Part shown: one piece after another, positions 1-3,083 of the stretch | Position numbering within the stretch: position 1 is the first letter of the stretch | Layout of the letters: each line of letters starts with the position of its first letter | Assembly (NCBI RefSeq): GCF_054482595.1 | Contig: NZ_JBTHVH010000002.1 | Strand: one strand, 5' to 3' | From: a plasmid | Length of the DNA: 3,083 nucleotides | Translations under genes and position numbers: made by a program | Notes under the pieces: generated by a model | What the model saw: the letters and a program-made list of their open reading frames with translations, nothing else | What the model was told of the DNA's origin: nothing | Databases searched by the model: none

Positions 1-426
1 CTCTTCGCTCTCCGTCTGATTTCGTTTGCAATTCTGTTATTTACTCTAATGGTGATAACCTTAGTCCTCTGCCGTACTTCTGAACCACTACGCTTATTTT
101 TAGCCATCGCAATGACTCTCCATTTTGCACGTTCTGGGTGTCGGGGCCTGCCCTGACAGGAGGTATTCTCATGCAAGCGAATGTATTCGCGGTATGACGA
201 ATACACATCCTGTCCCGTTTTTCGCTACAACTTTTCGACAAAAATAAAATACCGCGTCGTAACCTGGTATTTCTGATACAAAAAAACGATGCTTCATTCA
301 ATATTATTTACACAGATTTTAAAAGTTATTTCTTGTTATTTAATAAATAACGCAAAATTAATTGATGCTTTTGTTCTTTGTCGTTTGTTGATTATTGAGT
401 AAATAAAGATTGTGTTTTCCTGATTA

Positions 427-1926: not shown

Positions 1927-2715
1927 ATGAGAAAAAAGAATATGTTTCCGCCAGGATCTTTGAGTATAAAATTAAATAAACCTTTAACTAAATATGAAAT
2001 AATTGAGATATTGTCAGAATACCTCTCGATGTTAGAAATAACTTTTAGGATAAAAGAATTCCGGCTTTTCTCTTATTTGGAATGCGTGCTTAATGGAGAA
2101 AAGCAGGCTATATACCATAAAGATAATAACACAATCGTGTCTGGATTTTTACTTGATTCAATGAGGAGTACAAACAACAGAAAAATCAATAAGATACTGT
2201 TAGGCGGTGATGATTTTGATGCCATGGAAAAAATCGATGACATGTTAAATATGAAAGCAGAATCCAATCCGTATGAATATTTTAAGAGTTTTTTATCACT
2301 AGTTCCTGCTAATATTGCATATGATCTCATCAGGAAAACTGAAGAGTTAATCGAACTTGAGAGAGTGGAAAGGATAAAAGAAAAAATCGAATTGCGTGAA
2401 AAAAAGCTAGAAAAAGATAAAAACATATTAAAGGTTATTTATAACAATAAGATTGCTGAGTATTCATGTACTTTTGATTATTTTAGATCTGTATATTTGT
2501 CTAGCTCTGGTTTTTTATCTTTAGAAAAACAAAAGGCTAAATATTTTCTTGCGGAAGGGTTGGGTTCACTATTGAAGGATTATGTTGGTAAAAGGTTGGT
2601 AAGATTATCAATTAAAGGCGATGATGGTAAAGTCTCCATAGTCGAAATATATGATGAAAATGGTAGATTTTTATTTAAGACAAAACCTCTAAATAAATCA
2701 CAGAGTAATCTTTAA
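1927..2715 (+). CDS. Hypothetical protein (262 aa), AT-rich, with a highly charged E/K-rich central helix; function unknown
   Basis: ATG 1927 lies 14 nt after the upstream stop, with AGGG 8-9 nt upstream. The track ORF start at 1846 would overlap the upstream gene out of frame and is unlikely. Stop TAA at 2713-2715. Residues ~134-169 (nt 2326-2433, DLIRKTEELIELERVERIKEKIELREKKLEKDKN) look like a charged helix or coiled coil. No Walker, HEPN, PD-(D/E)xK or polymerase motifs seen by eye. Confidence 0.75.
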   Translation: MRKKNMFPPGSLSIKLNKPLTKYEIIEILSEYLSMLEITFRIKEFRLFSYLECVLNGEKQAIYHKDNNTIVSGFLLDSMRSTNNRKINKILLGGDDFDAMEKIDDMLNMKAESNPYEYFKSFLSLVPANIAYDLIRKTEELIELERVERIKEKIELREKKLEKDKNILKVIYNNKIAEYSCTFDYFRSVYLSSSGFLSLEKQKAKYFLAEGLGSLLKDYVGKRLVRLSIKGDDGKVSIVEIYDENGRFLFKTKPLNKSQSNL

Positions 2716-2761: not shown

Positions 2762-3083
2762 TTATCTGTCGAATAAGTTAGAGCCTGGGTATTTATTTTT
2801 GTGCTCTCTTTTTATTATTTTTATTTCCTCTATTATTAAATCCATCTCTTTATAAATATTTGAAATTTTCTGTGTTATCTCTTTCATTTCAGTACAGAGT
2901 GAAATTATTTTATGCATCACCTCTAGGTACTCTTTATCATTCGGACTCATCCCTTTATCAAATAATTTTTTCTGCATCCGACCAAGTTGTATTAATTCAT
3001 CTAGATATCTAGAAGGCACGCGCTGTTTTATTTCATTATTTAAACTTACTGTCCTTATATACTCTGAGATTGTCAGCCCTTCG
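2762..3083 (-). CDS. Hypothetical protein, 5'-partial (frame open to the window edge), AT-rich; function unknown
   Basis: Track ORF 2762-3019 begins at a GTG with no ribosome-binding site. The same frame has no stop for 21 more codons to position 3083 (…EGLTISEYIRTVSLNNEIKQR-VPSRYLDEL…), so the true start probably lies beyond the window. Stop TAA (plus-strand TTA 2762-2764). Convergent with the 1927-2715 gene. Confidence 0.5.
   Translation of the reverse strand, partial: EGLTISEYIRTVSLNNEIKQRVPSRYLDELIQLGRMQKKLFDKGMSPNDKEYLEVMHKIISLCTEMKEITQKISNIYKEMDLIIEEIKIIKREHKNKYPGSNLFDR

Follow-up and report, generated by a model that had tools for sequence, protein, structure and literature searches.

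A Complete NikA-Type Gene Beside an R64/IncK-Type oriT on a 3.08-kb Relaxase-less Plasmid of Escherichia coli

The plasmid DNA analyzed here (hereafter the window, 3,083 nt) ends inside an open reading frame on its minus strand. What does the frame encode, where does the rest of it lie, and does it belong with the genes at 1383–2715 that it adjoins? A preliminary description, made from the letters of the window, read it as a gene truncated by the window edge with its N-terminal part outside, noted an E/K-rich helical C-terminus, and considered that it may share an acquired low-GC island with the 1383–2715 cassette. The gene is complete and already annotated, as mobA. It is of a known kind: its product is a relaxosome accessory protein of the NikA type that is encoded beside an oriT but without a relaxase. 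Comparisons across related plasmids place it in a part of the plasmid other than the cassette.

A complete gene on a circular replicon

The window is 99.9% identical over 100% of its length (megablast) to NZ_CP100540.1, plasmid pLH10-b-1-j of E. coli LH10-b-1. That record is circular and 3,083 bp in size, and the window is the same circle rotated by 1,325 bp. Plasmid pLH10-b-1-j originates from pooled poultry feces in Switzerland and is typed as Col(MG828) and, by MOB-suite, as "non-mobilizable," a call made because a relaxase is missing. Collinearity with relatives continues over the window ends, as in locus L003, where position 2017 corresponds to window position 3083 and position 2019 to window position 2. 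Read on the circle, the minus-strand frame begins with an ATG, runs from 107 to 1 and then from 3083 to 2765, and stops at a TAA (2762–2764), giving a protein of 142 amino acids. This wrapped frame is identical in sequence to the RefSeq-annotated mobA (WP_032188787.1; 429 nt, 1437–1865 of the NZ_CP100540.1 record).

The 5′ part of the coding sequence (1–107, minus strand) holds the ATG at 105–107, codons 1–35, and bases 1 and 2 of codon 36, and is placed by the circular reading and by collinear relatives. The 3′ part (2762–3083, minus strand) holds the third base of codon 36, codons 37–142, and the stop codon, and is supported by translation, by identity to WP_032188787.1, and by dN/dS. Because the window is an entire circular plasmid, the apparent truncation of mobA is an artifact of where the circle was opened, and the N-terminus thought to lie beyond the sequence is encoded at 1–107. 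Past position 3083 the frame continues to a start codon instead of running into an in-frame stop, and the gene is conserved in relatives. A practical lesson is that a gene seemingly cut at the edge of a window can reflect the opening of a circular replicon.

That the minus strand carries a real protein-coding gene was recognized correctly at the outset. From 3082 to 2762 it has 107 open codons that end in the TAA, and the peptide previously quoted from its C-terminus (...KEMDLIIEEIKIIKREHKNK...) is present exactly. The length was rightly called notable for AT-rich DNA, as judged on the gene's own strand: in a simulation of 3,000 random sequences of 3,083 nt with matched composition, at least 107 open codons occurred on the coding strand in 2% and at least 142 in 0.07%, and none reached 181, which is the stop-to-stop length of the mobA frame on the circle. 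When all six frames are simulated, 107 codons are reached in 53% of cases, almost all on the stop-poor opposite strand.

A Shine-Dalgarno-like GGAGAG of presumed function (116–121, minus strand) lies 8 nt upstream of the mobA ATG and is kept in loci L003 and L007. A promoter scan found no sigma-70-like promoter upstream of mobA, a terminator scan called no canonical terminator in the window, including at a hairpin at 2725–2755, and a scan of the whole window against Rfam returned only sub-threshold chance matches. The whole plasmid has three genes, which encode a RepL-type protein, a protein of 262–270 aa that has no family match, and MobA. No relaxase gene or domain was found anywhere in the plasmid in the list of ORFs, the annotation, Pfam, or NCBIfam.

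The NikA-like product and the adjoining oriT

The mobA product exceeds the cut-offs of two family models, Pfam PF21983 (NikA-like; 59.4 bits, cut-off 27, residues 12–78) and the NCBIfam equivalog NF041264 (MobA; 91.4 bits, cut-off 80, residues 12–99, covering model positions 1–88 of 91). Its match to PDB 2BA3, the solved ribbon-helix-helix fragment NikA(1–51) of R64, has an E value of 1e-5 in phmmer. Over residues 1–104, it is 42% identical to NikA of R64 and 39% identical to NikA/MobA of IncK2/Z plasmids. The AF2 monomer model (pLDDT 76.6) has helices at residues 24–37, 41–57, and 60–78 and a long helix at residues 86–133, and its best PDB match in Foldseek is again 2BA3 (TM 0.66, rmsd 2.6). 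A β-strand at residues 16–22 is absent from the monomer and is seen only in a low-confidence tandem-dimer model (pLDDT 54.7, pTM 0.28), which we used for the appearance of the strand and not for packing of the tail. Homology and structure searches with the full protein thus supply the identity that had been placed outside the window, and they show homology between the N-terminal ribbon-helix-helix domain and NikA of the IncI1 plasmid R64. On the minus strand, residues 36–57 of this DNA-binding domain, as delimited by Pfam, the 2BA3 match, the AF2 helices, and Foldseek, are encoded at 3020–3083 and residues 16–35 at 3–62.

Directly 5′ of mobA is an R64/IncK-type oriT (137–232, minus strand), recognized in alignments to the oriT of R64 and of IncK2/Z. 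The IncK2/Z type is the closer of the two (73/92 positions versus 69/94 for R64). The core of the nick region (CGAAAAACGGGACAGGATGTG; 204–224, minus strand) is identical to that of R64 over 21 nt, and a 13-mer of the nick region (GGGACAGGATGTG) is present in 11 of 13 loci compared. An imperfect inverted repeat at 155–214 (arms 155–164/205–214 and 182–189/198–205) lies beside the nick region and overlaps it; its predicted DNA fold has an energy of −16.7 kcal/mol and a z of −3.1. The NikA-like protein presumably binds at this repeat, which would be the counterpart of R64 "repeat A" but is of another sequence, shorter, and less regular. The order of oriT and nikA matches that in R64 and in a large plasmid of strain LH10-b-1, pLH10-b-1-A, where it is oriT-nikA-nikB. 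At up to three mismatches, the window has no second copy of oriT of the sort reported for pBuzz.

Could the protein be mainly a ribbon-helix-helix transcriptional repressor (CopG- or Arc-like, antitoxin-like, controlling copy number or itself) with no role in transfer? It has weak matches to CopG_antitoxin (21.4; cut-off 28), DUF6290 (19.3; cut-off 27), and RelB (21.2; cut-off 50), and the matches to PHROGs, which are all weak and confined to the mobA product, include an Arc-like repressor. RefSeq also assigns "regulation of DNA-templated transcription" as a GO term. The putative binding site overlaps the upstream region of mobA itself, so autoregulation is plausible alongside a role in transfer. 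The family matches that point toward a repressor, however, all fall under curated cut-offs, whereas those to NikA-like and MobA lie over theirs. No toxin ORF adjoins mobA, PADLOC returned no match for any of the three plasmid proteins, and PHROGs returned none for RepL or the 262-aa ORF. The tight linkage of mobA to a conserved R64-type nick region would also be needless for a plain repressor. We regard a purely regulatory role as unlikely and favor a NikA-type accessory function.

Selection, distribution, and modular structure

Among 5,426 complete E. coli genomes, 51 have mobA, which is always plasmid-borne, on plasmids of 2.2–3.9 kb among the matches listed; PLSDB has ∼40 small plasmids with the gene. 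About 50 small E. coli plasmids carry both mobA and oriT. A word-indexed search for homologs recovered close relatives only (71–100% identity). With HMMER, run exhaustively over 1.8 billion representatives, only 41 relatives emerged at E < 1e-3, including a second lineage (P0043) with a 152-aa NikA-like protein that is 44% identical over residues 2–131 and is encoded on contigs of 2.7–2.8 kb (L012 and L013), on which no relaxase was seen. Like the window plasmid, this lineage encodes a protein with a long C-terminal helix, and its gene is preceded by the same oriT nick core. Unlike the window plasmid, the tail has another sequence, without KNKYPGSxLF, and the neighboring genes are one for a DUF29 protein and an uncharacterized ORF. 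No description of the orphan-NikA lineage of the window was found in the literature available to the search.

Three chicken-associated strains of E. coli (LH10-b-1, EC17CM6, and EC332) have 3,083-bp plasmids with a mobA identical to that of the window, which suggests recent spread; the match in EC332 is split by the start of the record, and the whole-length comparison (99.9%) covers the LH10-b-1 plasmid only.

Patterns of substitution bear on whether mobA and oriT function at all. They could be a decaying, nonfunctional remnant of a captured IncI/K oriT-nikAB region, since nikB is absent, R64/IncK have a longer and more perfect inverted repeat, and MOB-suite calls the plasmid non-mobilizable. 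Against decay, all copies of mobA examined are intact, at 141–142 aa, and dN/dS relative to homologs is 0.13–0.24 for the whole gene at dS of up to ∼1.2. In the family of small plasmids, the oriT is identical at 92–93 of 96 positions (96%), even where dS of mobA is ∼1.2 and thus near synonymous saturation, which argues for a function of oriT. Sequence comparison thereby shows purifying selection on mobA and on oriT as well. The second lineage, at 44% identity, has the same arrangement. We therefore consider decay very improbable.

The comparison of relatives also separates the plasmid into a conserved and an exchangeable part. The conserved block extends from window position 2771 across the junction to ∼1193–1260 and contains mobA, oriT, an AT-rich stretch, and a GC-rich Col(MG828) region. 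What is replaced among relatives is the segment from ∼1200 to 2770, with iterons, RepL, and the 262-aa ORF. The breakpoint between backbone and module falls in the last one to three codons of mobA (window 2762–2772; loci L003–L010), and each replication module supplies its own, different hairpin 3′ of the mobA stop codon. In the window, this hairpin (GCCGATAT-N15-ATATCGGC; 2725–2755) is part of the variable replication module and is flanked by the stops at 2715 and 2762, which converge on it, and it may be a candidate bidirectional terminator. MobA proteins that are 84–88% identical are paired with RepL proteins that are 95% identical, 53% identical, or without detectable similarity. Since mobA is found with divergent or unrelated RepL modules, it is part of the conserved backbone, not of the 1383–2715 cassette.

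These patterns reverse the suggestion that the ORF and the genes at 1383–2715 arrived together as one low-GC island. The compositional likeness behind it was real, with 33% GC in the mobA ORF and ∼31–35% in both regions, and the ORF does adjoin the cassette, in convergent orientation. Yet the ORF stays with the backbone of oriT and Col(MG828) when RepL modules are exchanged, the breakpoint lies in its own last codons, and the 262-aa ORF is present in few variants only. Co-variation between mobA and the cassette genes, proposed as a check, was not seen among the plasmids compared. A shared island is scarcely tenable and, to judge from the cross-plasmid comparison, already refuted; the cassette is instead the exchangeable part and mobA part of the backbone.

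The 262-aa ORF (1927–2715, plus strand) has an alternative GTG start at 1903 and a central E/K-rich helical stretch. It has no match in Pfam, NCBIfam, PADLOC, or PHROGs. Its dN/dS of 0.16 relative to the copy in L003 indicates that it is probably a real gene. Among plasmids compared at the protein level, it occurs only in variants of ∼3.1 kb and is absent from those of 2.2–2.8 kb. The RepL protein has a weak match to Pfam RepL (30.8 bits). Iteron-like GTCTATCA repeats and palindromes occupy 1279–1395, upstream of the RepL start and overlapping it, and this RepL/iteron module adjoins the Col(MG828)-like segment. The latter (747–1208) is GC-rich (∼60%), has no match in Rfam, and is ∼90% identical to hundreds of cryptic Col(MG828) plasmids of ∼1.5 kb that have no annotated gene (e.g. 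NC_018660.1 and NC_017629.1).

Some strains have several members of the family. Strains EC21Z-147 and GF4 have three each, strains STEC2018-607 and B771 have two each, and the highest count of mobA in one genome is four places. The pairs compared, those of STEC2018-607 and B771, differ in their RepL modules, which would be consistent with exchange of modules as a means of escaping incompatibility.

Proposed mobilization in trans and comparison with known systems

We suggest that the ORF, a complete mobA/nikA-like gene of 142 codons on a 3.08-kb plasmid without a relaxase, most likely encodes a relaxosome accessory protein for mobilization in trans by I-complex helpers. In the proposed mechanism, a dimer or higher oligomer of the MobA/NikA-like protein would bind, in its own oriT, the inverted repeat beside the nick region. 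Bound in this way, the oriT would serve as substrate when a co-resident conjugative plasmid of the I-complex supplies a NikB-type relaxase. The helper relaxase would then nick the oriT and the type IV secretion system of the helper would export the small plasmid, such that no relaxase of its own is needed. Because the oriT and the accessory protein are under selection and match those of I-complex plasmids (IncK2/Z and I1), plasmids of 2.2–3.9 kb with this pair, although typed "non-mobilizable" for want of a relaxase, are probably mobilizable in trans. The mobA product is only 38–44% identical to experimentally supported NikA proteins, and the repeat differs from repeat A of R64, so a productive interaction with a foreign NikB is an assumption of the mechanism.

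Precedents exist. Small plasmids with nikA only are known, and NTP16 is mobilized by R64 (Moran and Hall 2017, as cited in PMC9282650 and PMC11389934). In pEC156, an R64-type oriT alone supports mobilization by R64 (PMC4743918). The findings on mobA and oriT leave current understanding unchallenged and agree with an increasingly common view in which oriT mimicry lets many plasmids without a relaxase travel with others.

Co-resident plasmids point to a helper. Strain LH10-b-1, the host of pLH10-b-1-j, also carries the 169-kb IncK2/Z plasmid pLH10-b-1-A (MOBP/MPF_I), which has oriT-mobA-relaxase, and the same pairing of a small plasmid with IncK2/Z is found in E. fergusonii EF21JD053. With the best oriT match and co-residence in LH10-b-1, IncK2/Z is the best candidate for a helper. 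Of the 51 genomes with mobA, at least 6 are among the best 60 matches for the nikA-oriT region of pLH10-b-1-A. Leaving out LH10-b-1, there are 5 observed versus 0.5 expected co-residences, for a naive hypergeometric p of 1.5e-4. Shared sampling confounds this value, as the same studies contributed many of the carriers, which are poultry strains. NZ_CP075636 and NZ_CP075629 were considered as a co-resident pair and rejected, as they are from different strains.

The one unusual feature of the mobA product relative to NikA of R64/IncK is, by alignment, a C-terminal extension of ∼33 aa. The protein has 142 residues and NikA of R64 and of IncK2/Z 110, a difference of 32, and the alignment gap is ∼33 residues (105–137). 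The span of residues 100–142 (2765–2893, minus strand), delimited by the R64 and IncK2/Z alignments, the end of the MobA model at residue 99, heptads, dN/dS, and the conservation profile, corresponds to only ∼10 residues in R64 and IncK2/Z NikA. Heptad a/d positions from residue 88 to 126 are hydrophobic in 12 of 14 cases (Y88, V91, I95, L98, M102, I105, I109, I112, M116, I119, I123, and I126), which fits a coiled coil. The AF2 helix at 86–133 and these heptads bear out the early description of a helical, E/K-rich C-terminus. The heptad-repeat helix extends to about residue 133 and is followed by a tail, KNKYPGSxLF, that is conserved in the conservation profile; dN/dS over residues 100–140 is 0.10–0.31. 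We speculate that the coiled coil and tail probably provide added oligomerization or a contact with a helper protein.

The extension raises a small question, namely by what means an accessory protein with no relaxase encoded on its own plasmid cooperates with a foreign one. One answer would be that extension and tail form a "hijacking" adaptor peculiar to small plasmids that lack a relaxase. The tail could recruit a noncognate NikB relaxase or a coupling protein, or it could compete with the NikA of the helper, and with swaps of the replication module at the mobA stop codon, oriT and adaptor would be a modular backbone that rides on different replicons. The extension has no counterpart in NikA of R64/IncK or in the orphan NikA of pOSAK1-type plasmids, and the long C-terminal helix is also present in the second lineage, in which the tail differs. 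An adaptor with all of these properties is rather doubtful; if it were real, the plasmid would have a wider range of helpers.

Known ribbon-helix-helix proteins that bind oriT and assist a relaxase include the MbeC/MobC type of ColE1-like plasmids and TraY/TraM of F (PMC9282650). They act with a relaxase encoded by the same plasmid, whereas the window plasmid encodes none, and the mobA product has no significant match to the MbeC/MobC or TraY/TraM families in Pfam and NCBIfam. We also considered pIGRK as a precedent for a MOB module with NikA only and rejected it, since pIGRK uses MobK.

R64 and IncK2/Z plasmids are among the closest systems known. Their NikA proteins resemble the mobA product in the ribbon-helix-helix N-terminus and have the central motif LGRMQKxLF..G....DKEY in common with it, and in these plasmids, as in the window plasmid, nikA directly follows an oriT in which the nick region is the same. 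In the IncI1-type oriT-nikA-nikB operon, however, the relaxase gene nikB follows nikA, and the window plasmid lacks it. Residues of the β-strand also differ (KVITIRV in the mobA product versus VVRTLRF in NikA), as does the sequence of the repeat.

Also close are plasmids of the pCERC7/NTP16/pU302S/pOSAK1 type, which, like the window plasmid, are small and relaxase-less and have an R64-like oriT and a NikA homolog. In the account given in PMC9282650, this group shares an identical NikA that is ∼53% identical to that of R64. The mobA product is of another NikA lineage: its identity to NikA/MobA of pZ1504-2 is 38%. That protein, of 107 aa, lacks the C-terminal extension, and pZ1504-2, from its size and LsoAB genes, is presumably of the pCERC7/NTP16 (pOSAK1-like) type. 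Replicons differ too. The window plasmid has RepL with iterons and a Col(MG828) region, and no RNAI/RNAII family matched in an Rfam scan of the window, whereas plasmids of the pCERC7/NTP16 type have ColE1-like, RNA-primed replication. Mobilization by I-complex helpers would be expected for both.
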